Below, in pieces: positions 1 to 31,665 of a stretch of DNA of 64,000 nt. This DNA comes from Minisyncoccia bacterium. GTDB taxonomy: Bacteria > Patescibacteriota > Minisyncoccia > Phycocordibacterales > Phycocordibacteraceae. Positions within the stretch are counted from its first letter, which is position 1; each line of letters starts with the position of its first letter. Location of the stretch: assembly GCA_038212075.1 (NCBI GenBank), contig JBBQUV010000004.1, forward strand, positions 12,317 to 76,316, given 5' to 3'. The notes beneath the pieces are model-generated. The model saw nothing but the letters and a program-made list of their open reading frames with translations, made no database searches and had not been told where the DNA came from. A program made the translations under genes and the position numbers.

Positions 1-2081
1 AAAAACTCGGCGCTGAATTTGTCGCAGTGCGTTCAAGCGCAACTGCCGAGGACGGTGCGGCGGCGGCATGGGCAGGGCAACTTGATACGTACCTCAACAC
101 TACAGATGCGACCCTGCTTGAAAACGTACAACGTTGTTGGGCATCGCTATTCACACCGCGCGCGATCTTCTATCGTTTTGAAAAAGGACTTCACTCCACA
201 CACATTTCGGTCGCCGTTGTGATTCAAAAAATGGTTAACAGCGATGCCGCTGGTATCGCGTTTTCTGTGCACCCGGTTACCGAAGACTATAACCAGCTGA
301 TTATTGAAGCTGGGTTTGGGCTGGGTGAAGCCGTGGTGTCGGGGCAAGTAACGCCGGATTCCTATGTCATCACGAAAGTGCCACGAGAAATAATGGATAA
401 GAATATTTCCGAACAAACGCGCGCGATATATCGAAAAGAGGGAGGGGGAAATGAATGGCGCAACATCCCGACTGAAAAAGCATCGCTACAGGTACTTACC
501 GACGAGCAAATACTCGCACTTACCGAAACAGTCATTGGTATTGAAAAGCATTACGGCTTTCCTGTCGACACTGAGTGGGCAATGGAAAAAGGTGAAATGT
601 ACATCACTCAAAGCCGTCCTATTACGACACTCACCAATAATAACCAAGCAAGCGAATTACATTTTAATTCTCCAGCATTGCAGGGGTTTAATCCTACGGA
701 TTACGAGTACGACGGGCTTTGGAAGAATGATCTTTTCCCAACGTGTTTCTGGCAGGATTGTTGGGTGCCAGATGTCGTTACAGATATAAAGCTCGATATG
801 CAGGGGGCAGGAGTGATGAATTTGAAGGGAGGTCATTTCCTAATCAATAAAGCGGCTCGAGCAAACGTGGACGCACAAATCAAACAGATTATCGACGAAC
901 GGAACGGTGCGTTTTTCAAAAACCTTGTCAGTGTGTCGGACAATATATTCTCTTGGGCAGTTGAGAAAGGAGAAGAAATAAAAACAAAGCCACCCACGCT
1001 CGATGCTTTCCGAGATTTTGTAGCTACCGCAAAGAAAGTAAATTTTCTTTGGCTTATTGGTGCGTCCTATATCCAGTGGCCTGTAGAGGAACGACTGCAA
1101 GAAGCGATTATCGAAGATAAGATTCCAGCCGAACATGCTCTGGATGTTGTGCCCAAGGTTGATACGCCACTTATTCGGTATCAAGAGGGCTTGACCTCGC
1201 TTGCGAAGGAGGTAGAAGGAAAGTCATTTGCAGAGATCAAGAATGATCCAACCCTATACGAAAAACTTGAGACACATGCAAAAGCCTATTCGTGGATAGA
1301 GATTTTCAATTTTATTGGAGAACCGCTAACTCCCGAACGACTGTACGAACAGCTTGCGCATATCGATACAACAAAATCTTTGCACGCGTATGTTCCGTCC
1401 TCACCGCTTTCTTCGAAACTCCAGTTTGTCGCAGAGTGCATGCAAGCAGTGGGGTATGTAAAGCAAGCCGGAGCAGAATACTTCTCTATCTTTTCTGAAA
1501 AAACTATACCGTTTCTGCAAAAAGTCGCTGGTGAAATTGGGCTAACCTATCGAGAGCTTATGTGTCTTTTGGTTGATGAAGTTGACCAGGCGCTCGAAGG
1601 AAAAATCACTACTGAGGAATTGAAAAAAAGAGCCAACAAGCGCCTTGAGACAGTAGATTGGGTGGTCATCGGCGGCGCAGACGGCAAAATGATATTTGCT
1701 GATGATCCGGCCGACATTAATCTTCTTGTGGAAAAGATGGTTCCTCGCATCGGAGCAGGCACGCAGGAACTTGTGGGACAGATTGGCAACCGAGGTTCGT
1801 TCACTGGCCCAGCTCGGATCATTATGAATACGTATGACTTCAATAAATTACAGCCCGGTGACGTGCTGGTGACGACCATGACGACACCGGACTTTATCGT
1901 ACTTATGCAAAAGTCGGGAGCAATAGTTACCGACATAGGTGGGCTTTTATGTCATGCGGCAATTGTTTCGCGTGAGCTTGGAAAGCCATGTGTCATAGGT
2001 ACGAAATTTGCAACGCAATTGTTTAAGGACGGAGACATGGTGGAGGTGGACGGAGACAAAGGAGTAGTGCGGAAGATATAG
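1..2081 (+). CDS. PEP synthase / rifampicin-phosphotransferase-like protein: PPDK_N-type ATP-grasp nucleotide-binding region, helical linker, then C-terminal PEP-utilizing-enzyme mobile (swivel phosphohistidine) domain. 5' end lies outside the window; there is no C-terminal PEP/pyruvate TIM-barrel.
   Basis: The reading frame is open from nt 1 (KLGAEFVAVRSSATAEDGAAAAWAGQLDTY...). The PPDK_N-like motifs AGIAFSVHPVT and EAGFGLGEAVVSGQVTPDSY are present. The C-terminus reads VLVTTMTTPDFIVLMQKSGAIVTDIGGLLCHAAIVSRELGKPCVIGTKFA, which is the conserved swivel-domain His motif. Confidence 0.85.
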   Translation, partial: KLGAEFVAVRSSATAEDGAAAAWAGQLDTYLNTTDATLLENVQRCWASLFTPRAIFYRFEKGLHSTHISVAVVIQKMVNSDAAGIAFSVHPVTEDYNQLIIEAGFGLGEAVVSGQVTPDSYVITKVPREIMDKNISEQTRAIYRKEGGGNEWRNIPTEKASLQVLTDEQILALTETVIGIEKHYGFPVDTEWAMEKGEMYITQSRPITTLTNNNQASELHFNSPALQGFNPTDYEYDGLWKNDLFPTCFWQDCWVPDVVTDIKLDMQGAGVMNLKGGHFLINKAARANVDAQIKQIIDERNGAFFKNLVSVSDNIFSWAVEKGEEIKTKPPTLDAFRDFVATAKKVNFLWLIGASYIQWPVEERLQEAIIEDKIPAEHALDVVPKVDTPLIRYQEGLTSLAKEVEGKSFAEIKNDPTLYEKLETHAKAYSWIEIFNFIGEPLTPERLYEQLAHIDTTKSLHAYVPSSPLSSKLQFVAECMQAVGYVKQAGAEYFSIFSEKTIPFLQKVAGEIGLTYRELMCLLVDEVDQALEGKITTEELKKRANKRLETVDWVVIGGADGKMIFADDPADINLLVEKMVPRIGAGTQELVGQIGNRGSFTGPARIIMNTYDFNKLQPGDVLVTTMTTPDFIVLMQKSGAIVTDIGGLLCHAAIVSRELGKPCVIGTKFATQLFKDGDMVEVDGDKGVVRKI

Positions 2082-2084
2082 GGT

Positions 2085-3107
2085 ATGAGTGAGAAAAGAA
2101 TTATCTTTACCAAACCCTACGAGAGAGATTTTACGCTCGCGATAGAGGAGTATTGGGCGCGCGGATTTCTTGACGTCCTTCTGCCGCGCCTTGGCCTCAC
2201 GTCACCGTTTGAAATATTTGAAATCTTCTACGTCACCGAGGAGAACATGCAGATATGGGAAAATGAAGCAGCTATTCAATGGATACAGGACGAATTGCTT
2301 GCGCGAGTGAACGCCAACCATGCATTTCTTGATCCATATATAGCAGAATACATGGCGCTCCTTGCGCCACTTGAAACATTTTGGCACCAAGGAGCCACGA
2401 ATAACCTCTCCAAAATCAAAGAGTACAGCGAACTAATTCGAGTCGCCGCACCGCTTTTTTCGATGTGGTACTACCCGTGCATCGACGATCGGATTCCGGA
2501 GGATGTACTTATCCGACTGAAGGAGATTCGAAGGACCGATGAATTCTTCGCGAGCAACGATACTTTCATCAAGGACTGCATAGAGAAGCTCGGGGCGGAG
2601 CCGCGGCTCGGGAATCTCGTATATGCCGATGAATTTCCCAACATACCGAGTATGCAGGTACTGAAGATGCGTGCGGCAGGTGTCGTCGGCATCGACGGAA
2701 GACAGCAATTGGTAATGACACTTGAAGCGTATGCAAAGCAGCATCCGGAATATGAATTCGTCGGGTTGTTCGACAAGGTACCAGAGGTAAACGAAGTGAA
2801 AGGGCAGGTCGCGCAGAAGGGCATGGCGACTGGCACGGTGCGTATTGTGAAGAACAAGCGACAAATGCTCGACGTAAAAGATGGAGACATTTTGGTATCG
2901 CCGATGACCACACCTGACTTTCTCTCTGCGATGAAAAAAGCAGCAGCATTTGTTACTGATGAAGGTGGCATCATGTGTCATGCCGCTATCGTCGCTCGAG
3001 AAATGAAAAAGCCCTGCGTTATTGGAACTAAATTCGCAACACAAATCTTCAAGGACGGTGACCTGATAGAAGTAGATGCCGAACAGGGTATTATTAGGAA
3101 ACTATGA
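2085..3107 (+). CDS. PEP-utilizer swivel-domain paralog: helical domain plus C-terminal phosphohistidine mobile domain, with no ATP-grasp.
   Basis: C-terminus GDILVSPMTTPDFLSAMKKAAAFVTDEGGIMCHAAIVAREMKKPCVIGTKFATQIFKDGDLIEVD is near-identical in pattern to the gene 1 C-terminus. It starts 4 nt after the gene 1 stop. Confidence 0.8.
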   Translation: MSEKRIIFTKPYERDFTLAIEEYWARGFLDVLLPRLGLTSPFEIFEIFYVTEENMQIWENEAAIQWIQDELLARVNANHAFLDPYIAEYMALLAPLETFWHQGATNNLSKIKEYSELIRVAAPLFSMWYYPCIDDRIPEDVLIRLKEIRRTDEFFASNDTFIKDCIEKLGAEPRLGNLVYADEFPNIPSMQVLKMRAAGVVGIDGRQQLVMTLEAYAKQHPEYEFVGLFDKVPEVNEVKGQVAQKGMATGTVRIVKNKRQMLDVKDGDILVSPMTTPDFLSAMKKAAAFVTDEGGIMCHAAIVAREMKKPCVIGTKFATQIFKDGDLIEVDAEQGIIRKL

Positions 3108-3424
3108 TTATAAAAGGTATGGCAGCAAGCCAGGGCATCGCAGAAGGCTCAGTCAAGATCGTGATTGGCTCAAACGATATCAGTAAGTTCAAAGAAGGCG
3201 ATATTCTTGTCGCGGAGGTGACAGAGCCTTCAATGGTGCTCATGATGACTATGGCTGCTGCCATCGTTACCGATAAGGGCGGCATGACGACTCATGCAGC
3301 CATCGTTTCGCGCGAACTCGGCGTGCCGTGCGTCGTCGGAACCAGGGAGGCAACGACCACACTCAAGGACGGCATGCGGGTGCGTGTCGACGGTTCCGCC
3401 GGGACGGTCGAGATGCTCGATTGA
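3104..3424 (+). CDS. Stand-alone PEP-utilizing-enzyme mobile (swivel phosphohistidine) domain protein, 106 aa.
   Basis: MIIKGMAASQGIAEGSVKIV...GDILVAEVTEPSMVLMMTMAAAIVTDKGGMTTHAAIVSRELGVPCVVGTREATTTLKDG covers the swivel domain only. It overlaps the upstream stop by 4 nt (ATGA coupling). Confidence 0.8.
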   Translation: MIIKGMAASQGIAEGSVKIVIGSNDISKFKEGDILVAEVTEPSMVLMMTMAAAIVTDKGGMTTHAAIVSRELGVPCVVGTREATTTLKDGMRVRVDGSAGTVEMLD

Positions 3425-3425
3425 T

Positions 3426-4502
3426 ATGACTCCTTCCTGGATAGACGAGTATGCTCGCTCCGTCCACCAAGCGTATGTAGGAATGGTGCCATCGCGATGG
3501 TCTTCGCTTGACGGATTGAAAGCGTATCAGTCGCAGCAAGGAGCTTCCTTCATTTTTCTCGAGCGTCTGCGCATAAAGCATACGGAACTCGGTACGAAGC
3601 CGGAAGTACTTTTCAAACTTTTCAGTACTGCATCCACGCTCCGTGCCACTTTTTTGTTCCTCGCTTGGGAATACGCGAAGATATCAGATAAAAATGAGTA
3701 TCGTGTGCTCGCCCGAAACATATTCGATTGGCTCGATGGCATCCTTTCCGCGGGAATGCTCGAAGACAAATGGGTTCTTGCCAAGAATCTTATTCATACA
3801 TCCGAGGAAGTCGCAGGTACCCTTACCGATACTCCGTGGATAGAAGAAAACCTGCAGGCCGTGAAGGACGCGGGGAAGATGTATGTAAGCGCCGCGTCAA
3901 TAGGATTCGCCCTTTACCGCGACTTCTTTCCACAAGAAGCGCATGAAGCATACGGCCCTTATGACGCGAGCGAGCGTTTTGGTCCGGATACAACTCTTGT
4001 CGTAAAGCATTTCCCGAAATTGAAACCAGTCGAGCTCTGGCCCGAGGTGAAAAATTTTCCATACGAAGAAGTAACTATCTACCAGATATTGAAAGGAGTG
4101 CACTTCCGATGCGAACTTATCGGAATGCATTCTTTGTATGACGGTCCGTCTGTGCCGAACACAGCGGCCATAGCGGTAAAAGTAGACGGGCGCTTTCTGC
4201 CAGAAGATGAGATCGCGAAGGTTGCTATGGATATTGCGAAGCACGCAACCGAGTACTCGCATCTCTATGAGAAACTTACACTTCATGAAGCGAAGCTCAA
4301 ATTTGTCGAGTGGGAAACGTATCAGTTCAACCGGCTCTTCGAAGCCGCCGGCATGGACTGGCGTCCGACAGATGGGCTCCTCGCGCCTGTGATGGCCAAC
4401 GATATTCCTATGGGCATCTCCATCGATTCCTGGCCAGTATATGAGGAGTTCGTATCGAGTAAGGAGTACGAAGTGTTCTGGCTCCAAGACCTCTATAAAT
4501 AA
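3426..4502 (+). CDS. Hypothetical protein of the same array, without a swivel domain. Its ATG is 2 nt after the stop of the stand-alone swivel-domain gene.
   Basis: ORF with ATG at 3426 (MTPSWIDEYARSVHQAY...) immediately after the TGA at 3422-3424. There is no recognisable catalytic motif. Its position and translational coupling suggest it is the partner of the 106-aa swivel protein. Confidence 0.55.
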   Translation: MTPSWIDEYARSVHQAYVGMVPSRWSSLDGLKAYQSQQGASFIFLERLRIKHTELGTKPEVLFKLFSTASTLRATFLFLAWEYAKISDKNEYRVLARNIFDWLDGILSAGMLEDKWVLAKNLIHTSEEVAGTLTDTPWIEENLQAVKDAGKMYVSAASIGFALYRDFFPQEAHEAYGPYDASERFGPDTTLVVKHFPKLKPVELWPEVKNFPYEEVTIYQILKGVHFRCELIGMHSLYDGPSVPNTAAIAVKVDGRFLPEDEIAKVAMDIAKHATEYSHLYEKLTLHEAKLKFVEWETYQFNRLFEAAGMDWRPTDGLLAPVMANDIPMGISIDSWPVYEEFVSSKEYEVFWLQDLYK

Positions 4503-4515
4503 TAAGACGACATAC

Positions 4516-6171
4516 ATGAAGCCTTATGTAGCACTCGGAGTTCGCAATAGGACGCTGATGGAGGGGTATGGTCTTCTTGATTCCTATAAGCGACAGATAC
4601 CGGGTACGAAATGTCAGATAGAGAAGGCGCTCGACGTCGGAGAAGGGTACGCGGTGCGCCTCTGTCACAATGTTGAGGACAGGGCTCGTATTAGAAAGAT
4701 AATGGAAGAAGAGGTCCGTGCTGGCATATATACGCAAGAATTCTTCGACGCTATAGATACGACTTATAAAGATATAGTCAAAGATTTGAAATTCTTCGAG
4801 GAAGTCGATTTTAGTTCCATTAGTTCCGACGAAGTCCTCGCGTATTTCGACCATTTCTATCAGCTAGTTGTTACGACGGTTCATCCGATGGTTCTCGGAA
4901 TTTACGCTTCCGACTTGCAGGATGTGTTCGAAGCGGAACTCAAAACAGCTCTTGGGAATGATGCAAACGATGAAGTAGTGCTCAGTCATACTGCACTTCT
5001 TCTTACCCCTACTCGTCTTATAACCGTCCAGAAGGAAGAACAGCGGCTCTTTGAGATACAGGATCGTTTTGAGCACGAATATCCCTCAGGAACGGACGAG
5101 CAGTACGAAATCTGGAGTAAGCAACCCGATGCAGCTGTATTATTCGATACTCTTGTCACAAATCTCGGTTGGTTCCATATGGAATACCTTGGCGAGCCGC
5201 GTACCGCCGAGGAATATCAAAAGCAGATCGGAGAGCGCATCGCTGATCTCCGGAAGGCGGGGATCGAATGGACAACCCAGCAATCTCCGAAAGCACGTCT
5301 TGAAGAGCTGACGGGCGAACAGAAAGCATTTTTCGCTCGCCACTCTGATACCGCTCTACTGCAAGCGCTTGTCTTTACGATGCAGGAATATCTCATCGTC
5401 CTTGATTTCTCTAAAGCCGATCTCATTGAGGGATTGTATTATTCGAGACCCCTTCTTGCTGAGCTCGGCAAGCGCGTCGGACTCGATTCGTGGATAGACG
5501 TTCGTTACCTTACGCTGGAAGAATTGCGCGCATTCATACACGAGAAAAGGATAGTGAATAAAGACTACATCCGGGAGCGCAAGGAATACTGGACTGCGCT
5601 ACTTGAGGACGGTGTCATCAGTCTCACGTACGGTAGAGAAGCGCGTGAACTTACTGATCGGATTCTCGAGAAAGATGAGGTTACTGATACAAAAGAGTTC
5701 AAAGGGCTTTCCGCATATCCCGGAGTTGTCCGGGGAATTGCGTGTGTAGTAACTTCAGCTAAGGATCGCGACAAATTTAAACAGGGACAGATACTCGTGA
5801 CCGTAGATACGACAACGGAGCTTACATCTATTATCAAAAAATCCGCCGCCATCGTCGCGGACCAGGGAGGTTTGCTTTCCCATACCGCCATCGTTTCCCG
5901 CGAGTTCAAGATTCCGTGCATCGTCAGAACGAAGATAGGTACGAAGCTTGTGAAGGATGGGGATGAGATCGAAGTAGATGCTGGTAAGGGCATTGTCCGG
6001 ATCCTTAACCAGAGAGAAAAGATTCTGCTATGCTTGCTGTATAACCAAAACTATTTATGGAACAAGGCTTCAGGCATACATACGCGGAAGGGAACGAGAA
6101 GGCTCCGAAGGCATTTCATCTTCGAATGCATATCTTCCGACATGGGAAGAAGGACGGCCCTCATGACGTGA
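4516..6171 (+). CDS. PEP-utilizer swivel-domain paralog: helical linker region plus C-terminal phosphohistidine domain, no ATP-grasp.
   Basis: C-terminus GQILVTVDTTTELTSIIKKSAAIVADQGGLLSHTAIVSREFKIPCIVRTKIGTKLVKDGDEIEVD. The upstream linker (LTLEELRAFIHEKRIVNKDYIRERKEY...TKEFKGLSAYPGVVRGIACVV) aligns with the corresponding region of gene 1. The motif LGWFHMEYLGEPRTAEEY is shared with genes 1, 7 and 8. Confidence 0.75.
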   Translation: MKPYVALGVRNRTLMEGYGLLDSYKRQIPGTKCQIEKALDVGEGYAVRLCHNVEDRARIRKIMEEEVRAGIYTQEFFDAIDTTYKDIVKDLKFFEEVDFSSISSDEVLAYFDHFYQLVVTTVHPMVLGIYASDLQDVFEAELKTALGNDANDEVVLSHTALLLTPTRLITVQKEEQRLFEIQDRFEHEYPSGTDEQYEIWSKQPDAAVLFDTLVTNLGWFHMEYLGEPRTAEEYQKQIGERIADLRKAGIEWTTQQSPKARLEELTGEQKAFFARHSDTALLQALVFTMQEYLIVLDFSKADLIEGLYYSRPLLAELGKRVGLDSWIDVRYLTLEELRAFIHEKRIVNKDYIRERKEYWTALLEDGVISLTYGREARELTDRILEKDEVTDTKEFKGLSAYPGVVRGIACVVTSAKDRDKFKQGQILVTVDTTTELTSIIKKSAAIVADQGGLLSHTAIVSREFKIPCIVRTKIGTKLVKDGDEIEVDAGKGIVRILNQREKILLCLLYNQNYLWNKASGIHTRKGTRRLRRHFIFECISSDMGRRTALMT

Positions 6172-6950
6172 CCCCCGAAGTGGATATGGTAATGGCCCTG
6201 AAATCGGAAGGCAGGATGCAAGCCCATGAGAAAGGTGTCAGTTTAGGAACAACGGGCGGCGTTGCAAGTGGTAGCAGCCGAGCGCGTACCCGTGAGACCG
6301 CGATGCACGTCGCGCACGCGAATAATCCGGAAATAAAAGGTACCGAAACCTATGAAGAACTGGTTGAGAAACTGGGTAGGCCGTGGACGAATAAGGCATT
6401 CGACATGCCGTTTAGCAAGGATGACGAAGATTTTCCCATCATCCTAGAGAAATCGAATGACGGTACGCTCCTCAAATGGTGTGCTGAGCAGGCTGATAAG
6501 GCGCTTGTGGAAGGAGACGCGAGCAATACCATTTACGGTACCCAGGCGCGCGAGATAGCAAAAGTCTTAGTACGTTTCGCGGCCATAGCGTCAAAAATGG
6601 CGGACCGTGCCGAACTTATGTTTGAGCGTGGCGAAGAACCAGAAACTGAGCGTGAACAAGTGATGGGAACACATGCGGGCGTGAATGAGTCATTCGTCGC
6701 CGAAGTCGTGAAGCGTACGCTTGGCGAGGATGAACGACAGAAACTGCTGGACGCCGTCCCATCCGGTGTTATGGAAACGCAAGGGTCGGACATCAATATC
6801 GTGGCTCGCCCTGGCGGAGAAGAACCACGCATCCACCTAAGATTCGAAGGAGGAAAAGAACAGAAATATATCTTTGATCAGGATGTCCCTCTCTCAGTCA
6901 TTCGTAGCATTATCAAAGATTTTTCTCCGAGAGAAACCCCAGAAGCATGA
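6126..6950 (+). CDS. Histidine phosphatase superfamily (phosphoglycerate-mutase/SixA-like branch) protein.
   Basis: N-terminal MHIFRHGKKDGPHD (RHG catalytic motif), GVASGSSRARTRETA (the SS-x-RA-x-TA motif) and a distal QVMGTHAGVNESFV (second catalytic His). The start is chosen at the ATG just before RHG. The longer ORF from 6057 overlaps the upstream gene further. Confidence 0.6.
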   Translation: MHIFRHGKKDGPHDVTPEVDMVMALKSEGRMQAHEKGVSLGTTGGVASGSSRARTRETAMHVAHANNPEIKGTETYEELVEKLGRPWTNKAFDMPFSKDDEDFPIILEKSNDGTLLKWCAEQADKALVEGDASNTIYGTQAREIAKVLVRFAAIASKMADRAELMFERGEEPETEREQVMGTHAGVNESFVAEVVKRTLGEDERQKLLDAVPSGVMETQGSDINIVARPGGEEPRIHLRFEGGKEQKYIFDQDVPLSVIRSIIKDFSPRETPEA

Positions 6951-8527
6951 ATAAGAACCTTGAATGGTTCTGGGCGCACCGGAGGAATTCAAGCCTTCAT
7001 CATATGAGTTTTCTTATGCGTGGACTCGCAGGGAAGGGGTGGGCGCCCGCGGTTGATTTCTGGTTTGATAATCAGGCGTTTGTGGGCGTTCCTGGTAAAG
7101 GAATTTATATCTTTTACGATAAGCATCAGCTTTCGTCAGAGGGGAAATACAAGGATGTACAGGAAAGTATCGATAAAAATCCGGATTTTGTAGGAGATTT
7201 CAAGAAACGTACCGATGAATTATTCGGCGCAATATTTGCGAGCTGTAAGCAGATTGATGCCGCGGACCTGGTCGCCTTTACGGATACAGAACTCGAAGCA
7301 CTCTACGTCGAGATACTCTCGAGTTTGATGATTGCACCGATTATCTCGGTCCAGCTTTGGGGTATTGAAGCATGTTTCGATGAGAGCTATCGTATTATTC
7401 GTTTCTTGCGTTCACGGCTTGAGGAACTCCATAAGAGTCGAGATTTTGATACCTACCGCGGGTTACTATCTGTGAACACAGGCGAGACCGTTGCTTTCAC
7501 CGAGCAGAAAGATTTCTATGGCGTTGCGGCTCAGATAGCGCGCGTGCCTGAACTCGCCATTTTATTCGCTGGTGAAAATACTGCGAGTGCAAGTACTGCA
7601 TTAAAACGTTTTCCGAAAGAGGATGCGCTTTTTACCGGACATGTCTCAAAATATGAGTGGATGCATTCGGAATATGTTGGGCATGCATGGTCGCGTGAAA
7701 AATGGATAGCACTCTTTCAAAAAGCATTCCGGGAGACCTTAAGGCCAGAGGAGAAGCTTAAGGAACTGCTTGAGAATTTTGCCGAACAGAACGCGGAGCG
7801 AAATAATGCGATCGCAGAATTGTCACCACCACCGGACGTACTTCATGCCATAGATGCGCTCGGTGAATTTATTGCACAACGTGATTGGACCAAGGGATAT
7901 TTTACGAAGATACTGCTCAGTTATCACAAACTGCTGGACGAGATAGGTCGGCGTCACGGTCTCGCGCGCACAGAGCTTTTCGACTACTCATATATCGAGG
8001 TTCAGGAACTTCTTGCTTCTGGCAACAGACTTTCAAACGAAGAACTCAAAAGTCGTAAGCAAGATGGTTTCGCTGTAGTAATTACGGGAGGTGACTTCAA
8101 TCTTACGACTGGTAAGGATGCAATTGCTAGTGTCATCAACACGGAAGGATTGGCTGAGCCGTTTGAGAAATATATGAACGTCTCAGAATTCAAGGGACTT
8201 GCCGCTTCGCGCGGGCACATCACCGGGAAGGCGAGAGTACTTGAAGATGCTTCACGGATTTCGGAACTTCAACCCGGAGAGATACTGGTAACATACATGA
8301 CGACGATTGAATTTATCCCGGCTTTCCGAAAGGCCGCCGCCGTAGTGACAGACGAGGGCGGCATGTCGTGTCATGCCGCGATCATTAGTCGTGAATTCAA
8401 GCTACCTTGCGTGGTGGGAACAAAAGTTGCCACAAGAGTGGTGCAAACGGGCGATACGCTTGAGGTAGATGCGATCCACGGAATTATAAAGATACTTGAT
8501 TCGGCAACACCGTCTGACGCTGTATAA
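6947..8527 (+). CDS. PEP-utilizer swivel-domain paralog: N-terminal helical domain plus C-terminal phosphohistidine domain.
   Basis: C-terminus GEILVTYMTTIEFIPAFRKAAAVVTDEGGMSCHAAIISREFKLPCVVGTKVATRVVQTGDTLEVD. The linker LARTELFDYSYIEVQELLASGNRLSNEELKSRKQDGFAVVITGGDFNL...GHITGKARVL parallels the gene 1 linker, and WMHSEYVGHAWSREKW matches the shared motif. ATGA overlap with the upstream gene. Confidence 0.75.
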   Translation: MNKNLEWFWAHRRNSSLHHMSFLMRGLAGKGWAPAVDFWFDNQAFVGVPGKGIYIFYDKHQLSSEGKYKDVQESIDKNPDFVGDFKKRTDELFGAIFASCKQIDAADLVAFTDTELEALYVEILSSLMIAPIISVQLWGIEACFDESYRIIRFLRSRLEELHKSRDFDTYRGLLSVNTGETVAFTEQKDFYGVAAQIARVPELAILFAGENTASASTALKRFPKEDALFTGHVSKYEWMHSEYVGHAWSREKWIALFQKAFRETLRPEEKLKELLENFAEQNAERNNAIAELSPPPDVLHAIDALGEFIAQRDWTKGYFTKILLSYHKLLDEIGRRHGLARTELFDYSYIEVQELLASGNRLSNEELKSRKQDGFAVVITGGDFNLTTGKDAIASVINTEGLAEPFEKYMNVSEFKGLAASRGHITGKARVLEDASRISELQPGEILVTYMTTIEFIPAFRKAAAVVTDEGGMSCHAAIISREFKLPCVVGTKVATRVVQTGDTLEVDAIHGIIKILDSATPSDAV

Positions 8528-8534
8528 TTTTTGC

Positions 8535-9959
8535 ATGAATAAAACCGATATTTTAGAGAAGAAATGGATTAACTATGGACGGTGGACACAGCCGACCATT
8601 TCAGGCGCCTTTTGGACACACTGGGATGAAGCAGAGTGCGCGCGTGAAGTAAGTCAGGACTCTCCGCTCCCGGCGATCGTATTCCTCGACGGGTACCATC
8701 TTACTCCTCTGGATGAAGACCATGCAGTGAAGACTTATTTTAATAAACGATACAGCGAAGGAACGCTTGGAGAATTTCTTGAGAAATTTGAGACATCATC
8801 AAAGAAAAGCGAAGCGCGGATCCTTGCGATTCTTGGCAATACGATGCTTTCTAATGCTGAATACGCACGAGAGCTTTTTGCTGCCTTTCTCGAGGTTGTT
8901 GGCGCGTGGTCATTCCTTTTCCGGTTCTCCACGTCACTTGAAGAAATCGCACGCGAACAAGGACTAGCTGTAAGTGACGACGATATCTTGCGGCATATGC
9001 GTCCCTATACCCGCGTTACGTTGCTCGAGCAGCAGACCATTGAACTTAAAGAATTCGCGCGGGCATTGCGTGCGCAATACCCAGCTATTCCAGTAACAGA
9101 ACTCACTAAACATGTAATGGATGACGCGTCGACGCCCCTTCTCGCTAAAATTCATGATCATGTTCAGGAATTTTCCTGGTTTGGCACACATCACTGGGAA
9201 GGAGAGCCCTACACGCTCGAAAAATGCCTTTCTGATATTCAAGACATACTGAATAAGGGAGGGGATGTGGAAGAGGGATCAGTTGCCGTATCGTCGAGCG
9301 AAGGCGATCAGACCATATGGAAACTTCTCGCAGCTTTTGCATATTGGCGCACCCACTGCGCAGAAGTGAGTGACAAAGCGGCATACCTTTCGCGTGAACG
9401 ACTTACGGATGTGGCAAAGAAATGGAGTATTACCTACGAGGAGCTTACTTGGCTTTCAAGTGGAGAGATTATAAAAGCGCTTGATATAAGTGAGGACTCT
9501 ATTGAGCTCCCCACAAACTTTGCTGAACGAAAAGCTGGATATGGGGCATGGGTTGATAACGGTGTTGAGCATATTGTTGTTGGTGCAGAACTCGCCACAC
9601 TCATTGATGCGGCTGTTCCAAAAGTTGATACTTCCGTGTCTGAGATTAAAGGAACTGTCGCAAGCAAGGGTGGCGTAATTACCGGTATCGCACGCATCAT
9701 TATGGGGCCAAGTGAATTTGCCAGTTTTGTCGCGGGAGATATTTTGGTCGCAAACGAAACCACACCAGACTTCGTTCCGCTTATGAAAAATGCCGCGGCA
9801 ATTGTGACTGATACGGGCGGCATTACTTCTCACGCGGCAATTGTTTCTCGTGAGCTTAAGAAGCCCTGTGTTATAGGCACCAAAATCGCAACGAAAGTAT
9901 TCAAAAATGGCGATATGGTTGAAGTGGATGCAATTAACGGAATTGTCCGAAAGATATAA
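8535..9959 (+). CDS. PEP-utilizer swivel-domain paralog: N-terminal helical domain plus C-terminal phosphohistidine domain.
   Basis: C-terminus GDILVANETTPDFVPLMKNAAAIVTDTGGITSHAAIVSRELKKPCVIGTKIATKVFKNGDMVEVD. The linker LTYEELTWLSSGEIIKALDISEDSIELPTNFAERKAGYGAWVDNGVEHIVVGAE...GVITGIARII and the motif FSWFGTHHWEGEPYT match the others. Confidence 0.75.
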   Translation: MNKTDILEKKWINYGRWTQPTISGAFWTHWDEAECAREVSQDSPLPAIVFLDGYHLTPLDEDHAVKTYFNKRYSEGTLGEFLEKFETSSKKSEARILAILGNTMLSNAEYARELFAAFLEVVGAWSFLFRFSTSLEEIAREQGLAVSDDDILRHMRPYTRVTLLEQQTIELKEFARALRAQYPAIPVTELTKHVMDDASTPLLAKIHDHVQEFSWFGTHHWEGEPYTLEKCLSDIQDILNKGGDVEEGSVAVSSSEGDQTIWKLLAAFAYWRTHCAEVSDKAAYLSRERLTDVAKKWSITYEELTWLSSGEIIKALDISEDSIELPTNFAERKAGYGAWVDNGVEHIVVGAELATLIDAAVPKVDTSVSEIKGTVASKGGVITGIARIIMGPSEFASFVAGDILVANETTPDFVPLMKNAAAIVTDTGGITSHAAIVSRELKKPCVIGTKIATKVFKNGDMVEVDAINGIVRKI

Positions 9960-9961
9960 AA

Positions 9962-10012
9962 AAGAGCGCATGGAAGGGATCGAAGTAAATCGATATTCCA
10001 TGCGCTCAGTCC
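9962..10012. terminator. Bidirectional hairpin between the end of the swivel-domain array (+) and the convergent small gene (-).
   Basis: gagcgcatgg (9964-9973) pairs with ccatgcgctc (10001-10010) as a perfect 10-bp stem. A small internal palindrome atcga/tcgat lies in the loop. Confidence 0.5.
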
Positions 10013-10030
10013 ATGCCGCGGGCAGAAGCT

Positions 10031-10360
10031 TCAGTGGGGCGGTTCGTAGTAGAACCGCAAGCCGTGCGTGTTGGTGTTGAGACACGCGATCAACTGATCG
10101 CGCGGCGGCTCCTGCGCCATGCCGAGTCCACACAAGGCCGAAATTTCGTCCTTGTACTTTTCGGCCGTGATCAGGTCGTATTGTGTGGACCACTTGTACC
10201 GCAGGACACCGCCATCCGGAAGGATGGTGGAATCCCCGACTGGCGTCACACAGCACGGCGCTGGATATGTTCCTGCAAGCGCGTGTGCGATCGGAAGCGT
10301 GAAAACGCCAACGATAGCAATTGCGTACAGGAAACGGGAAGTGTCGGTCAAGGAACGCAT
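10031..10360 (-). CDS. Small secreted or exported hypothetical protein (109 aa) with an N-terminal signal-peptide-like hydrophobic segment.
   Basis: MRSLTDTSRFLYAIAIVGVFTLPIAHALAGTY... The Shine-Dalgarno TAGGAGGG lies 7 nt before the ATG on the minus strand. A consensus promoter lies upstream. Confidence 0.6.
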   Translation of the reverse strand: MRSLTDTSRFLYAIAIVGVFTLPIAHALAGTYPAPCCVTPVGDSTILPDGGVLRYKWSTQYDLITAEKYKDEISALCGLGMAQEPPRDQLIACLNTNTHGLRFYYEPPH

Positions 10361-11706: not shown

Positions 11707-11712
11707 TCTACT

Positions 11713-12871: not shown

Positions 12872-13291
12872 TTACTGTGATGCGACGACGAATCGTGTTG
12901 GAGGAACAATGACGTACGCGTACCCGTCCTTCGAATGAATTTCAGCGACGATAGGACTTCCTGTCCCGCCGATTTGAATCATTCGACCAGTGAGCCACAC
13001 CGCGAGATTTGCATTCTTTACGAATGCGCACGCGGTGCCGCTGGGTAGAGAAACGCCCGTCGACGAAATGGCTGTGCCTTTTGTCGCGATAGTCCCGGCA
13101 TCAGCGATTGCCATCTCGTTGTCTTCCTCGTTTGTGCACACAGTCACTTTGTTGAGCGTCAGAAGGTGATCGGCCAGGTCGTGTCGTGTTTGAAGCGACG
13201 CGGTGGTCAACTGACCTGCCTCGGCATTGGCGGTGAAAAAGAGCAGCAGTGAGCCCATTACCACAACGCCTATTTTTACCAAACTTTTCAT
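12872..13291 (-). CDS. Hypothetical secreted protein (139 aa) with signal peptide.
   Basis: MKSLVKIGVVVMGSLLLFFTANAEAGQL... is a cleavable-signal-like N-terminus. It is convergent with rseP and separated from it by a hairpin. Confidence 0.5.
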   Translation of the reverse strand: MKSLVKIGVVVMGSLLLFFTANAEAGQLTTASLQTRHDLADHLLTLNKVTVCTNEEDNEMAIADAGTIATKGTAISSTGVSLPSGTACAFVKNANLAVWLTGRMIQIGGTGSPIVAEIHSKDGYAYVIVPPTRFVVASQ

Positions 13292-13440
13292 GGCGTCGTT
13301 CTCCCTGTCCTACCCAGTCATTGGGCAGGTATCACCTTGGTATACTCCCGCCACGGCCGAAATCAATGGGGGTGGGTGCATAACTTCAGGAGAAAGCCAC
13401 TTTTGCGCTTTAGGCATATCCTTCCTATAATCAAGCGACT

Positions 13441-14679
13441 ATGCGCCAGTCCCAGCTATTTACCAAAACCCGTCGCGACGCACCGTCTGACGAAGCGGCT
13501 AAAAACGCCCAGCTTCTTATTCGCGCTGGATTTGTGCATAAAGAAATGGCGGGAGTGTATTCCTATTTGCCGCTCGGGAATCGTGTGCTTACCAACATTG
13601 AGAAAGTGATCCGTGAAGAGATGGACGCAATCGGTGGACAAGAAATCCGCATGGCGACACTGCACCCATCTGAAAATTGGAAGAAGACCGGCGGATGGGA
13701 TGGGGTTGACGTGCTGTTTAAAATTCAGAGCCGCACCGAAAAAGAATACGCGCTCGGACAAAGCGAAGAAGAAATCGTGACACCTGTCGTGCAGGAGTAT
13801 GCGCTTTCATACAAAGACCTTCCTGTTGCGGTGTATCAAATTGGACAGAAGTATCGCGATGAATTGCGCGCAAAGTCTGGTGTGATGCGCGGTCGCGAGT
13901 TTGGCATGAAAGATATGTATAGCTTCCACGAGACGCAGGAAGACTTTGACCGTTTCTATGAAATCGTAAAAGCGTCCTATATAAAGGCGTTTGCTCGTTG
14001 CGGACTCGATGTGAAGGTAACCGAGGCCTCAGGTGGTGCGTTTTCTGAAAAACTGTCCTATGAGTTTATGGCGCTTACTGACGCGGGTGAAGACGATATT
14101 TTGTATTGCAATGCCTGTACGCACTGTGCAAACGTAGAAGTGGCAAAATCTGCTGAAGGTGACACGTGTCCAAAATGTGAAAAAGGAACACTCACCAAGG
14201 CGCGCGCGGCAGAAGTAGGGAACGTGTTTGATCTTGGCACGAAGTATCCGAAGGCTTTCGGGTTTATGTACAAAGACAAAGAAGGGAATGATCAAACGCC
14301 GATTATGGGTTGCTATGGATTTGGCACGAGCCGACTGGTAGGAACCATCGTTGAAACCTTTGCTGACGACAGGGGCATGGTGTGGCCAGAAGAAGTAGCA
14401 CCGTTCAAAATACATTTGGTATCGCTCGGGCAGAAAGGAGACGACGTTTCTCAGGCGGCAGACGCCCTGTATGCAGAAATGAAACAGCGCGGCATGAGTG
14501 TGTTGTATGACGACCGTGACGCACGCGCAGGAGAAAAATTTGCCGACTCCGACCTTATTGGAATTGCGACACGTGTGGTGGTGGGTAAGCAGGGGATTGC
14601 TGACGGCACTTTTGAAGTGGTGAATCGCAAAACAGGAGAAGTGACGAAAAAATCACGCGAAGACGTGCTTACGCAGTAG
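13441..14679 (+). CDS. proS: Prolyl-tRNA synthetase, short bacterial-type form lacking the INS editing domain. A Cys4 zinc-ribbon-like insertion is present.
   Basis: MRQSQLFTKTRRDAPSDEAAKNAQLLIRAGFV is the ProRS N-terminus. Class II motifs RGREFGMKDMYSFH and GCYGFGTSRLVG are present. It is 412 aa instead of about 570. Insert: CNACTHCANVEVAKSAEGDTCPKCEKG. Confidence 0.88.
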   Translation: MRQSQLFTKTRRDAPSDEAAKNAQLLIRAGFVHKEMAGVYSYLPLGNRVLTNIEKVIREEMDAIGGQEIRMATLHPSENWKKTGGWDGVDVLFKIQSRTEKEYALGQSEEEIVTPVVQEYALSYKDLPVAVYQIGQKYRDELRAKSGVMRGREFGMKDMYSFHETQEDFDRFYEIVKASYIKAFARCGLDVKVTEASGGAFSEKLSYEFMALTDAGEDDILYCNACTHCANVEVAKSAEGDTCPKCEKGTLTKARAAEVGNVFDLGTKYPKAFGFMYKDKEGNDQTPIMGCYGFGTSRLVGTIVETFADDRGMVWPEEVAPFKIHLVSLGQKGDDVSQAADALYAEMKQRGMSVLYDDRDARAGEKFADSDLIGIATRVVVGKQGIADGTFEVVNRKTGEVTKKSREDVLTQ

Positions 14680-14681
14680 GT

Positions 14682-15737
14682 ATGATGAAGCGATTTTCAA
14701 AAAACTCGCTCTTCTCAAGCGATATTGGTGTTGACCTCGGTACCGCAAATACACTCGTGTACGTGCGTGGGCGCGGCATTGTGTTGAATGAACCGTCAGT
14801 AGTAGCCATAAATGACAAAACGGGACAGGTGGTGGCCGTAGGACGAGAAGCAAAAACCATGCTCGGGAAAACGCCACCGCATATCCGCGCGGTGCGTCCT
14901 CTTTCCCACGGGGTTATTTCTGATTTTGAAATTACTCAGGAACTTCTTGCCTACCTTATTAACAAAGCGCAGGGCGGACGATCCAAGCTATTTGGACCGC
15001 GTGTGGTGGTGGGTGTGCCAACGGGAGTAACAAATGTTGAAAGCCGTGCCGTGCGCGATGCGGCAATGACCGCAGGCGCGCGCGAAGTATTCATTATTGA
15101 TGAACCAGTTGCGGGCGCTATCGGTTCCAAACTTCCGATCAATGAAGCGCTTGGCACCATGGTGCTTGATATTGGTGGCGGCACTACGGACATTGCCGTA
15201 CTCGCGCTTGGCGGCACCGTAGCGTCTAAAAGTTCACACATCGCGGGTGACCGATTTAACGACAATATTATTGATTTTGTACGTAGTGAATTTCAACTTG
15301 CTATCGGGGAGCGTACCGCAGAGGACATAAAAATTTCCATTGGCGCAGTAACGCCGCTTAAAGAACCGCTTTCACGCGCTGTGCGTGGCAGAGACCTTGC
15401 GACAGGGCTTCCGCGCGAAATTATTCTTACCGACACGCACGTGCGCGAAGCACTCGAGCTTTCGCTTGAAGCACTTATGGAGGCGATGAAAGAAGTGATT
15501 GAAAAAACGCCACCAGAACTTCTTTCGGACGTACTTGAGCGCGGCGTAGTCATTTTCGGCGGCGGAGCACTGCTTCGTGGTCTTCCGCAAATGCTTTCCA
15601 AAATGCTCGGTGTGCCGGTGCACACTGCGCCCGACCCACTTACGGCAGTGGTGCGCGGTACGGGCATTGTGACTGAGGATCCGGGACCATGGGCAAGTCT
15701 ATTTATCGATGAAGAGGATGTCCTTCGCGAGGCGTAA
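14682..15737 (+). CDS. mreB: Rod-shape-determining actin homologue MreB.
   Basis: DIGVDLGTANTLVYVRGRGIVLNEPSVVAI, VIDEPVAGAIG and DIGGGTTDIAVL are actin-fold MreB motifs. Confidence 0.92.
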   Translation: MMKRFSKNSLFSSDIGVDLGTANTLVYVRGRGIVLNEPSVVAINDKTGQVVAVGREAKTMLGKTPPHIRAVRPLSHGVISDFEITQELLAYLINKAQGGRSKLFGPRVVVGVPTGVTNVESRAVRDAAMTAGAREVFIIDEPVAGAIGSKLPINEALGTMVLDIGGGTTDIAVLALGGTVASKSSHIAGDRFNDNIIDFVRSEFQLAIGERTAEDIKISIGAVTPLKEPLSRAVRGRDLATGLPREIILTDTHVREALELSLEALMEAMKEVIEKTPPELLSDVLERGVVIFGGGALLRGLPQMLSKMLGVPVHTAPDPLTAVVRGTGIVTEDPGPWASLFIDEEDVLREA

Positions 15738-29273: not shown

Positions 29274-29648
29274 ATGCGCCGTATAGAAATCGCCGCTGAA
29301 GCGTTTCTTCACCTCGCCATACAGGAAGGGAAGAAACGTGGCAACGAAATTGCTTTTCTCAAACGACTAACCCACGCTCTTTCAAGTTATGAACTCAAAG
29401 GAAAAAGCTTTCTAAAGCGACACAAAAAAGGTCAGGCGGCGAAGTTTCTGCTTGATAGCATCTTTCCGCTTCTTGAAGCCATGACTTCTGAGGTGTGGAT
29501 GAGGAAGATGGTACTGCATTCGTTTGCCGAAAAAGTGTTCGGCGTCTACATAACCAAGATTGATTCACGGGTTATGGACGATGAGGACGAATTCAGTCTT
29601 GCTCCTCTTGGGGGCAGACTCATACGAAAGGCCGTTTCATCACAATGA
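29274..29648 (+). CDS. Hypothetical protein (124 aa).
   Basis: ORF with no recognisable motif. Overlaps the downstream nth-like start by 4 nt. Confidence 0.35.
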   Translation: MRRIEIAAEAFLHLAIQEGKKRGNEIAFLKRLTHALSSYELKGKSFLKRHKKGQAAKFLLDSIFPLLEAMTSEVWMRKMVLHSFAEKVFGVYITKIDSRVMDDEDEFSLAPLGGRLIRKAVSSQ

Positions 29649-30346
29649 TGGAACGGCCTTTGTGGTATCCTGCCGCAATGGCTACCGCACGGTTTATAGA
29701 GCGCACGGCGCGCGCAAGGAAACTCGTGGCGTATTTGAAAAAGACATATCCAGCGCCCAAAAGCGAACTTGTTGCGGATACGCCGATGCAGTTTGTTGCG
29801 TCGGTGATGCTTTCGGCACAGTGTACTGATAAAACAGTGAATCGGGTCACTATACCCCTTTGGAAGAAATATAAAACTACAAAAGATTTTGCGCGTGCAA
29901 ATCTTGCAATATTTACCAAAGAGATTTCATCCGTTACGTTTTTTCGCAATAAAGCCAAGGCAATCATTGGAACCGCAAAAGTACTAGAGAAAGAACACAA
30001 CGGGAAGGTGTCAAACACAGAAGCAGAGCTTGTGGCACTCCCCGGCATTGGATACAAGACCGCGCACGTTATTTTGGGTGAACTCTACGGAGTGTGGGAA
30101 GGTATTCCAACCGATACGCACGTGAAGCGTTTTGCAAAACGTTTTGATCTTACGGATAACGAAGATTTAAAAAAGATTTCTAAAGACTTAGAAGCGTTGG
30201 TGTCAAAAAAAGATTGGAAGTACGTAAATAACGGGCTGGTGCTCTACGGACGGTATGTGTGTCCGGCACGTCCACACGAATGTCTCGCGCATCCGCTCAC
30301 CAAACTATGGCCGCAAGCAGTAAAGCGTTGGCCAAAAGTGACCTAG
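29645..30346 (+). CDS. nth: Endonuclease III-like HhH-GPD DNA glycosylase.
   Basis: Helix-hairpin-helix ELVALPGIGYKTAHVIL with the catalytic Lys/Asp region (GIPTDTHVKRF). The C-terminal Cys cluster appears incomplete, with only CPARPHEC. Confidence 0.72.
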   Translation: MMERPLWYPAAMATARFIERTARARKLVAYLKKTYPAPKSELVADTPMQFVASVMLSAQCTDKTVNRVTIPLWKKYKTTKDFARANLAIFTKEISSVTFFRNKAKAIIGTAKVLEKEHNGKVSNTEAELVALPGIGYKTAHVILGELYGVWEGIPTDTHVKRFAKRFDLTDNEDLKKISKDLEALVSKKDWKYVNNGLVLYGRYVCPARPHECLAHPLTKLWPQAVKRWPKVT

Positions 30347-30347: not shown

Positions 30348-30932
30348 ATGGACTGGCATCTTATCGTCGCGGTTATTTCAGCGTCTCTCTGTTTTGGTTC
30401 TGTTATTCCCTATGTTCGAGATATTTTGTACGGCACAACACGCCCCAATGCGGTTACGTGGTTTTTGTGGCTTTTTATTCAAGCCATAGCCATTGCCGCT
30501 CAAATACACGCAGGAGCATCGTGGTCGCTTGTGATGGTGATCGCCGATGGAGTAACTATTGGGATTGTATTCGTACTTTCTGTCATTGGATATGGGTATA
30601 CATCATATGACCGCACTGATCTTTTCTGCGGCCTCGTCGGTGTGCTGGCTATCGTGCTGTGGGTAGTTACCGGCAATGCACTCGTCGCACTCGTGCTTTC
30701 TGTTGTTGCCGACGGGTGCGCCGCTTTTCCGACACTCCGAAAGGCGTACAAAGATCCGTGGTCGGAAAATCCGACAGGCTGGGCATTTACCACCGTAGCC
30801 GCACTTTTGGCAATTATCTCTACCACTCGTTTTGATACTGCAAATCTACTTTTCCCTGCGTATTTGGCGGTGGTTAACGGACTCACGTTCGCGTTGGCGT
30901 TTGTGGGTAGAAAAACGCATCCTAAGCCATAG
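30348..30932 (+). CDS. Hypothetical polytopic membrane protein (about six TM helices).
   Basis: Hydrophobic profile. No family recognised. Confidence 0.45.
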   Translation: MDWHLIVAVISASLCFGSVIPYVRDILYGTTRPNAVTWFLWLFIQAIAIAAQIHAGASWSLVMVIADGVTIGIVFVLSVIGYGYTSYDRTDLFCGLVGVLAIVLWVVTGNALVALVLSVVADGCAAFPTLRKAYKDPWSENPTGWAFTTVAALLAIISTTRFDTANLLFPAYLAVVNGLTFALAFVGRKTHPKP

Positions 30933-30969
30933 GTTTCCCTCCACACTGAAACGGCGGTACCATAGGAGG

Positions 30970-31665
30970 ATGGAGAAGCAGAGACCGGTAGCGGTATTTG
31001 ATATAGACGGAACAGTGTTTCGTTCCTCGCTCACGCTTGAACTTATTGAACGACTTATTGAAAAAGGTACCTTTCCTATAGAAACCCGCGAAGCCTACGA
31101 AGACGAACGGGAGAAGTGGCTTGATAGAAAAGGCGACTATGAAGCATACGTACGTAAGGTGGTTGATATTTTCTGTAAACAAATAAAAGGAGTTCCTTTT
31201 GAAGCGGTGGCAAACGCCGCCGGAGAAGTTATTGAAGAAAAGAAAGATAGAGTGTATCGCTATACGCGTGATCTTATTATGGAATTAAAAAAGAAGGGCT
31301 ATTTTTTGCTCGCGATTTCACACTCACCAAAGTTTATTGTAGACGGATTTGGATTTGAAGCAGGGTTCGACAAGGTGTACGGCTATTTGTTTGAAACCGG
31401 TCCTTCGGGAAATTTCACGGGCAAGGTTGAAGAAGAGGCTTTAATTCAAAATAAGGCGGCGATTTTTCAGCGTGCAGTACGAAAAGAAAATCTCACACTC
31501 GAAGGTTCTGTTGGGGTGGGGGACACAGAAAGTGACATTACCCTTCTTGAGGCAATTGAGTCCCCGATTGCATTCAATCCAAACCAGAAATTGTACGATC
31601 ACGCTCAAAAAAGAAATTGGAGTATTGTCGTTGAACGAAAGGATGTCATCTACGAAATCAAATAA
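30970..31665 (+). CDS. HAD-superfamily hydrolase (HAD-IB / phosphoserine-phosphatase-like).
   Basis: VAVFDIDGTVFRSS (DxDGT motif I), a later SHSPKF region, and GVGDTESDITLLEA (motif IV GDxxxD). RBS ATAGGAGGA precedes the ATG at 30970. Confidence 0.75.
   Translation: MEKQRPVAVFDIDGTVFRSSLTLELIERLIEKGTFPIETREAYEDEREKWLDRKGDYEAYVRKVVDIFCKQIKGVPFEAVANAAGEVIEEKKDRVYRYTRDLIMELKKKGYFLLAISHSPKFIVDGFGFEAGFDKVYGYLFETGPSGNFTGKVEEEALIQNKAAIFQRAVRKENLTLEGSVGVGDTESDITLLEAIESPIAFNPNQKLYDHAQKRNWSIVVERKDVIYEIK

Follow-up and report, generated by a model that had tools for sequence, protein, structure and literature searches.

A divergent histidine phosphatase coupled to swivel-histidine dikinases in Patescibacteria, and what it may act on

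What would a histidine phosphatase do inside an array of kinase genes? The question is raised by a 64,000-nucleotide stretch of DNA from a Minisyncoccia bacterium (Patescibacteriota; GenBank assembly GCA_038212075.1, contig JBBQUV010000004.1, positions 12,317 to 76,316 of the forward strand), the whole of which we call the window. Its first ~10 kb hold co-directional, tightly packed genes on the plus strand that include one ATP-grasp, six swivel-His proteins (Pfam family PEP-utilizers) and one histidine phosphatase, called HP here. A preliminary description, drawn up from the letters alone, had suggested that HP erases or edits the phosphohistidine (phospho-His) of these swivel proteins. As argued below, HP probably removes a phosphoryl group that the swivel-His kinase system carries or installs; what is new is the architecture of the HP subfamily and how strictly it is coupled to swivel-His dikinases, while the fold and the chemistry are familiar.

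Identity and reading frame of the phosphatase

The positions of HP on which the argument rests, together with the end of the gene before it, are as follows.

6010..6171, plus strand: read-through tail (53 codons and stop) of the swivel-His gene 4441..6171, which creates a 115-nucleotide overlap with HP
6057..6950, plus strand: HP, 297 amino acids, histidine-phosphatase superfamily, start ATG 6057
6138..6146, plus strand: R28-H29-G30, with the phospho-accepting catalytic His, assigned by conservation and motif
6285..6287, plus strand: R77, second catalytic Arg (GSSRARTRETA), aligned with the catalytic Arg of PhoE 1ebb ('SGRALETA')
6339..6647, plus strand: mostly helical cap, specific to the family, inserted after the N-terminal core and ahead of the strand of the second His (about residues 95-197)
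6357..6359, plus strand: E101, likely proton donor, aligned with the Glu of PhoE 'LREI'
6672..6674, plus strand: H206, distal catalytic His (GTHAGV), which follows core strand 198-205 in the model

That HP belongs to the histidine-phosphatase superfamily, as had been read from its motifs, is upheld by hidden Markov model (HMM) search, motifs and fold (branch 1). A search against Pfam His_Phos_1 (PF00300) had been proposed as a check on the family, and it gave a match above the cut-off (E = 4e-5, 23.8 bits against 21.7; residues 25-104 on profile positions 2-79 of 194), so the assignment does not fall for want of a hit. Five of eight other family members scanned also match at E <= 0.01, with up to 45 bits. 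The RHG motif is present as MHIFRHGKKDG (R28-H29-G30) and the distal His as GTHAGV (H206), both as described; of the middle motif the second arginine stands, whereas the pattern SS-x-RA-x-TA given for it was slightly out of register, the actual sequence being SGSSRARTRETA.

An exhaustive search with the family profile returned 297 clusters at 50% identity with E <= 1e-3, 220 of them with E <= 1e-10, and nearly all are about 290-315 amino acids long and match end to end. Among 137 family representatives that are pairwise <= 50% identical, R28 is kept in 99%, H29 in 100%, R77 in 99%, H206 in 96% and E211 in 93%, and G52, T81, F213, G223 and G243 are conserved as well. R28 and H29 are invariant in alignments A3 and A5 (the latter of 22 sequences), H206 is invariant in A5, and E97 and E101 are kept in 90% or more of A5; the PhoE Glu with which E101 aligns is the proton donor of PhoE.

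The AlphaFold model of HP from 22 sequences (predicted local distance difference test, pLDDT, 92; predicted template-modelling score 0.89) replaced an earlier one from 6 sequences, which was discarded (pLDDT 71, residues 30-78 below 50; Foldseek matches weak, with E ~1e-2 and template-modelling (TM) scores of 0.2-0.3). With the 22-sequence model, all of the top 50 Foldseek matches in the PDB belong to the histidine-phosphatase superfamily (probability 0.95-1.00, TM 0.31-0.55, identity 9-18%), and these include GpgP, PSP, PGAM5, TIGAR, CobC, dPGM and acid phosphatases. The model gives the cap helices 99-106, 126-134, 138-151 and 159-190 at pLDDT >90 and the C-terminal region three extra beta strands; the cap lies outside the Pfam His_Phos_1 coverage, and 84-98% of the family keep its residues L115, D147 and Y160. 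While a 6-sequence profile found nothing meaningful among PDB sequences, a 60-member family profile reached PhoE (1ebb/1h2e, 6e-7), then Rv3214, Alr0221, CobC, PSP and GpgP, and SixA (4hbz) only at E = 0.017. The branch 1 enzymes of the PhoE, GpgP (Rv2419c), CobC and PspA type are thus the best matches in both sequence and fold, with the same five catalytic residues and TM up to 0.55 for GpgP and PSP; they differ in that identity is 10-18%, the sequence alignment does not go beyond the first 80 residues, the cap and C-terminus are peculiar to the HP family, and none has a genomic tie to a dikinase.

The preliminary description had also likened HP to SixA-type members, and this did not hold: no match to TIGR00249 was obtained, and HP has 297 amino acids with a ~100-residue helical insert and a C-terminal beta extension, whereas SixA is a minimal core of ~155-170 residues without a cap. 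SixA membership was rejected on the TIGR00249 cut-off of 74.5 bits, which is not reached (the relative P0036 has only 20.7 bits), and membership in dPGM, GpmA or GpmB on the lack of an NCBIfam match; over all NCBIfam models, TIGR00249 and dPGM included, HP has no match at E <= 0.1. The fold also bears on the idea of a phosphomutase or phosphotransferase, in which His29 of HP would pass the phosphate to an acceptor or within the substrate, like dPGM. HP has the same catalytic set as dPGM-type mutases, and dPGMs are among its fold matches, but no dPGM model matches in NCBIfam, the cap is unrelated in sequence and no acceptor is evident, and we consider this reading highly unlikely. Judged by alignment and model, HP is a divergent, uncurated histidine-phosphatase subfamily that is predicted to be catalytically intact.

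As for the start codon, comparison with relatives favours ATG 6057 and not ATG 6126. The overlap with the upstream open reading frame (ORF), given before as about 46 nucleotides from 6126 or 115 from 6057, is correct, that ORF ending at 6171. Full-length homologues all begin at an aligned Met some 20-25 residues ahead of the RH motif, 97% of the 137 members have Met in column 1, the position of M24 (6126) is Leu in 90% of them, and the interval from 6057 to 6126 has no further in-frame ATG, GTG or TTG. The block LR(L/M)HI(I/F)RHGKKDGGNDVTPEVD is kept in four full-length homologues (71-49% identical), all of which start at a Met aligned with 6057. In the model, residues 20-28 form beta-1, therefore a start at 6126 would truncate this strand. 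When HP codons 21-38, which lie in the overlap, are compared with those of the orthologue in the related locus L003 (71% identical), 11 codons have changed synonymously and 3 non-synonymously. Third positions of the HP frame account for 13 of the 17 nucleotide differences, and conservation is lacking in the other frame, by which measure the RHG frame is under purifying selection. An untranslated RHG frame had been named as the finding that would count against HP, and the synonymous-dominated divergence from L003 speaks to the contrary.

The public NCBI call (P0001, 252 amino acids) starts at M46 = 6192, lacks the catalytic RHG and carries no name, and the Logan call (P0170, 274 amino acids) starts at ATG 6126. 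By the family alignment, HP is mis-annotated in the public record with a start 45 codons too late, and this late start removes the catalytic motif and so hides the function from automated annotation. It may be asked whether 6192 is the true start after all and HP, without RHG or as a chance neighbour of the array, is not a working phosphatase. The start of P0001 fits with this, as does the lack of a Shine-Dalgarno sequence at every candidate HP start, which is uninformative because such sequences are missing upstream of most window genes. Set against it are the RHG block, which every full-length homologue retains and which has diverged mostly at synonymous sites, and the relatives, in which the full-length HP ORF does not overlap with its neighbour; we find this reading scarcely credible.

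The overlap itself appears to be a lineage-specific stop-codon loss in 4441..6171 (or an assembly artefact) and not a conserved design. The orthologue of 4441..6171 in L006 ends '...GTVKILN*' where the window reads '...GIVRILNQREK...', the window tail crosses the former spacer into HP and is without a conserved counterpart, and in L003 the gene upstream of HP stops just past the swivel domain, 9 nucleotides before the HP ATG. The 115 nucleotides would therefore be shared because 4441..6171 lost its stop codon.

Linkage to swivel-histidine kinases

The preliminary description had HP embedded among swivel-His genes, and a survey of loci with two kinds of HMM, made from the swivel domains of the window and from the HP family, extends this linkage well beyond the window: HP abuts a swivel gene in all 21 of the 21 informative non-redundant loci, the window included. 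Such adjacency is not chance, which is also incompatible with the chance-neighbour form of a non-working HP, and the genomic partnership with swivel-His dikinases is obligate. The loci come from Paceibacterota, Saccharibacteria, Azambacteria and metagenome-assembled genomes of further Patescibacteria, and every HP family member with a nameable source organism is from the candidate phyla radiation (CPR)/Patescibacteria. An ATP-grasp gene or domain usually heads the cluster, and the order of array genes is shuffled among close relatives with HP remaining inside.

In seven loci (L017, L018, L021, L023, L026, L028 and L029) the whole system is two genes, a full-length dikinase of 650-810 amino acids followed by HP, with a spacing of 1 nucleotide in L017 and L023. 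The core unit is thus a two-gene module in which an ATP-grasp/substrate-domain/swivel-His kinase stands directly before HP. The flanks of the two modules checked, L017 and L023, are unrelated, with oxidoreductase/SHOCT/PrsW in one and IS110/LemA/DUF2207 in the other. Arrays usually have one HP (two in L001 and L012) per 3-7 swivel proteins with different N-domains, and a search for a fixed short-swivel partner of HP gave only a loose orthogroup without strict pairing. A scan of genome contigs with the alignment of close relatives found no locus. In the genetically tractable Saccharibacterium Southlakia there is no PF00391 protein, and the sole 'histidine-phosphatase-like' orphan is a 79-residue fragment, because of which the transposon-sequencing data for this organism are not informative. 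In the literature searched, neither the HP family nor its association with RPH-like kinases in a gene cluster is described.

Several loci have further features of their own. In L013 (2119..7371), and likewise in L020 (1..4995), a ~1750-amino-acid ORF with one ATP-grasp and three swivel domains is a fused version of the array, two genes upstream of HP. In L001 there is a second, divergent HP paralogue of 406 amino acids (12966..14186), a DUF6922/AbiEii toxin-antitoxin-like pair (7702..8494) inserted within the kinase array, and, just beyond the array, a short canonical His_Phos_1 gene (14284..14940, minus strand) whose best NCBIfam model is SixA, below cut-off. A 188-amino-acid His_Phos_1 protein lies beside the Saccharibacteria array in L014 (9879..10442, minus strand) and also in L024 (5223..5786, minus strand); its best model is SixA, with 41.8 bits against the cut-off of 74.5.

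Possible targets of the phosphatase

Which part of the kinase system HP goes with can be judged from pairwise identities among four minimal HP-dikinase modules.

HP: 70-89% identity
HP cap: 65-90% identity
ATP-grasp domain: 67-81% identity
Swivel domain: 48-67% identity
Middle substrate-binding domain: no BLAST high-scoring segment pair; 0-27% identity in forced alignments

By these identities, HP tracks the constant machinery and not the specificity domain of the kinase. Since HP is constant while the specificity domains vary, and since an array usually has one HP for 3-7 of them, a target common to all partners is favoured, for which the swivel-domain phospho-His (or pyrophospho-His) is the obvious candidate. 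The best explanation of the sequence comparisons, which we hold as a tentative preference, is that HP dephosphorylates the shared phospho-His swivel, acting as its eraser or editor. The ATP-grasp would charge the swivel His with the beta-phosphate of ATP, as in RPH, phosphoenolpyruvate (PEP) synthase, HpeHI and PpsAB; HP would take the phosphoryl from the phospho- (or pyrophospho-) His of the swivel, the element common to all partners; the phosphate would move to His29 of HP and then be released as phosphate; and HP could in this way reset, edit or throttle the kinases, like SixA on NPr and on the phospho-His intermediate of Ndk. It is known that SixA dephosphorylates phospho-His on NPr (PMC7948535, PMC6282199) and removes the catalytic phospho-His intermediate of Ndk (PMC12934123), and SixA is of the same superfamily with the same RHG nucleophile, so that its phospho-His removal is the very role proposed for HP. 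The partners differ, being HPt or HPr-like proteins for SixA-type enzymes and PEP-utilizer swivel domains for HP.

A dedicated regulator that stands beside a PEP-utilizer enzyme and acts on its swivel near the catalytic His is PSRP (DUF299), whose fold is unrelated to that of HP and whose target is the Thr two residues before the catalytic His. PSRP-type regulation was rejected, as this position is L, M, L, S, T and T in the swivel domains of the window and is not conserved.

A number of points weigh against a swivel eraser. HP is not SixA-like, with its large predicted cap and 297 amino acids, and its nearest structures are mostly metabolite phosphatases (GpgP, PhoE, PSP, CobC and acid phosphatases, with PGAM5 also in the list). 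Unless it were regulated, an eraser translated together with the kinase and acting on a catalytic intermediate would set up a cycle that wastes ATP, and we know of no phospho-His phosphatase for the PEP-utilizer swivel domain. HP is fused to an FGase-type (N-formylglutamate-amidohydrolase) domain in P0027, L012 (4761..6737) and L022 (2144..4042), an FGase is a separate array gene in L007 (10357..11505), and there are single HP fusions to an M20 peptidase (P0149) and a transglutaminase core (P0158); such amidohydrolase fusions and adjacency look like those of a metabolic pathway enzyme. Two arrays (L001 and L012) hold divergent HP paralogues, and the short SixA-like genes beside some arrays could fill the role of phospho-His phosphatase instead. 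The scan of window ORFs covered those up to about 33.6 kb. In the window array (1-9959) there is no FGase, M20 or transglutaminase gene and its two unassigned genes are without a Pfam match, and the C-terminal extensions of the longer HP fusions P0011, P0100, P0135 and P0153 have no match in the loci.

Much of this would suit a phosphatase of a small-molecule pathway, in which the RPH-like kinase would phosphorylate a hydroxyl group on a small molecule and HP would remove that phosphate from the product or from a later intermediate. The phosphate might be attached transiently, to activate the molecule or as a handle (compare the Hpe pathway), or kinase and phosphatase might act as a pair to control how much of a phospho-metabolite is present, in the manner of PFK-2/FBPase-2 or PPIP5K. 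The large conserved cap, the mostly metabolite-phosphatase character of the nearest solved structures, the hydrolases (FGase, M20, transglutaminase-like) fused or adjacent to HP and the divergent paralogues within one array all fit with it. So does the homology of the array proteins to the rifampin-binding domain of RPH: positions 292-516 of profile A8 align with Listeria RPH 5fbs 648-867 (1e-21), which is the C-terminal part of this domain plus the swivel, while for the first ~200-300 residues of each swivel paralogue no known relative was found.

Precedents exist for both variants. A dedicated product phosphatase occurs in split-dikinase clusters, where HpeD goes with HpeHI (PMC9618137, PMC12167813), HpeD being the dedicated phosphatase encoded by the Hpe cluster (PMC9618137). 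HpeD is a HAD-fold enzyme with a later intermediate as its substrate. HP, by contrast, is of the histidine-phosphatase fold (for which reason an HpeD/NagD-type HAD identity was rejected) and occurs even in two-gene modules without an intermediate-converting enzyme, so that the two resemble each other in role only. Couples of an ATP-grasp kinase and a histidine phosphatase also exist, e.g., PPIP5K (PMC11836120): in PFK-2/FBPase-2 and PPIP5K/Vip1, as in the HP module, a kinase (an ATP-grasp one in PPIP5K) is paired 1:1 with an enzyme of the histidine-phosphatase superfamily that undoes its reaction (PMC11836120). Those are, however, single eukaryotic polypeptides with a defined signalling metabolite, while the HP module consists of separate adjacent genes and its kinase differs in having a phospho-His swivel and a variable specificity domain.

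What speaks against a small-molecule target is that conservation within the module is highest in HP, the substrate-binding domain of the kinase being replaced between loci, that a single HP serves up to seven specificity domains, and that the two-gene modules have no enzyme to transform a phosphorylated intermediate, direct reversal being futile. On balance we consider such a pathway role somewhat less likely than the swivel eraser, to which it is the main rival.

The same constancy of HP beside variable specificity domains could be read in favour of protein substrates, with the variable middle domains directing the kinases to proteins and HP reversing the marks (many writers, one eraser). PGAM5, a protein phosphatase of the superfamily, is among the structural matches, the HP fusions are to peptide-bond hydrolases, and protein kinases derived from dikinases do exist, VadK having come from PPDK (PMC13400623). 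But nothing points to the window-type kinases acting on proteins: what can be aligned of them corresponds to the domain with which RPH binds its small molecule, and no conserved candidate substrate genes occur in the modules. We regard this general protein eraser as clearly unlikely. The five readings weighed here, from the swivel eraser to the non-working HP, together take up the great bulk of the probability, and the remainder belongs to readings that are not listed.

The window array and the meaning of the family

The genes around HP in the window are the following.

27..2081, plus strand: RPH-like dikinase (ATP-grasp PPDK_N, middle domain, swivel His domain), 5' end cut by the window edge
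2085..3107, plus strand: short swivel-His protein of 340 amino acids, a 240-residue N-domain plus PEP-utilizers (Pfam 1.2e-26)
3104..3424, plus strand: free-standing swivel-His domain of 106 amino acids (Pfam PEP-utilizers 2.9e-28), catalytic His kept
3426..4502, plus strand: array protein of 358 amino acids, family unassigned, starting 1 nucleotide after the swivel gene 3104..3424
4441..6171, plus strand: swivel-His protein directly upstream of HP (PEP-utilizers 8.7e-21, residues 446-517)
6947..8527, plus strand: swivel-His protein directly downstream of HP (Pfam 1.3e-22)
8496..9959, plus strand: last swivel-His protein of the array (Pfam 8.1e-26)

The dikinase matches Pfam PPDK_N at 3.6e-68 and PEP-utilizers at 6.1e-25, with PDB matches that include PEP synthase and Listeria RPH 5fbs (1e-64), and its orthologue in L003 sits directly before HP. 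All six swivel domains of the window keep the catalytic His, in the motif ...GGxxxH(A/T)AI(V/I)(S/A)RE..., and the free-standing one, which retains the GGMTTHAAIVSRE motif, resembles a stand-alone phosphocarrier. Orthologues were found in L005 and L006 for 4441..6171, in L001, L003, L005 and L006 for 6947..8527, and in L001, L005 and L006 for 8496..9959, and 2085..3107 belongs to a loose orthogroup in L013, L010, L007 and L014. Residues 300-518 of 6947..8527 align with RPH 5fbs 654-867 (part of the rifampin-binding domain and the swivel). The HP stop and the ATG of this gene share ATGA at 6947-6950, an overlap typical of coupled translation, to judge from the sequence.

The product of 3426..4502 has no Pfam or PADLOC match and no homologue among 30 related loci, and the longer ORF 3294..4502 that contains it has no NCBIfam match; the real start is probably 3426 rather than 3294, because the 44-codon N-terminal extension is Arg/Ser/Cys-rich and looks like junk. 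PADLOC anti-phage models matched neither HP nor the seven array proteins.

Taken together, the neighbours have the ATP-grasp (PPDK_N), the catalytic-His swivel and the RPH-like substrate-binding domain by which an RPH-type dikinase is recognised, in the same plan as RPH (PMC4844700). Among the split dikinases HpeHI, CreHI and PpsAB (PMC12167813), HpeHI has its ATP-grasp as a separate protein, like the array. By domain content, the window array is an RPH or split-dikinase architecture expanded into many specificity subunits, and arrays of this type differ from RPH and the split dikinases in having one ATP-grasp with up to seven swivel paralogues, a free-standing swivel included.

Scans for promoters and terminators over 1-13500 did no better than chance and therefore give no operon limits, and the tRNA scan found no tRNA gene within the window. 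Recognisable Shine-Dalgarno sequences are nearly absent (upstream of 2085, 3104, 4441, 6057, 6947, 10439, 11155, 13441 and others), and many adjacent window genes overlap by 4-60 nucleotides. Downstream of the array lie holB, frr, rseP and housekeeping genes, and the array is near mreBC/PBP2/dcw genes, a proximity to envelope genes that may be coincidence. In two other loci the genes just upstream of the arrays are cell-envelope enzymes, D-Ala-D-Ala ligase in L007 (4620..5597) and PAP2 with the undecaprenyl-diphosphatase BacA in L008 (759..2892). Elsewhere in the window, two HhH-GPD base-excision glycosylase paralogues stand less than 3 kb apart (29645..30346 and 31472..32470), the second of which overlaps the HAD-hydrolase ORF 30832..31665 by ~190 nucleotides; one of these two starts was probably called too early.

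Few dedicated phospho-His phosphatases are known (SixA, PGAM5, PHPT1 and LHPP), and in the literature searched none was found that is tied to the PEP-utilizer or dikinase class. More tentatively still than the swivel target itself, HP may be the first dedicated (pyro)phosphohistidine phosphatase for PEP-utilizer swivel domains, the constant eraser or editor of a CPR-wide modular phosphorelay driven by ATP, in which one ATP-grasp writer would charge many swivel subunits, a free-standing carrier included. If true, phospho-His erasure would extend from signalling carriers to the dikinase enzyme class. The family is small, soluble and easily assayed, with the presumed partner adjacent, which makes erasure of swivel phospho-His directly testable in vitro. 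Until now, resistome surveys have done no more than tally the RPH-like genes of CPR bacteria as putative rifampin-resistance genes (PMC8651080). The HP family marks a conserved, unstudied system in CPR/Patescibacteria, whose reduced genomes nevertheless retain arrays of RPH-like kinases, and the role of their constant phosphatase would constrain what these kinases are for.

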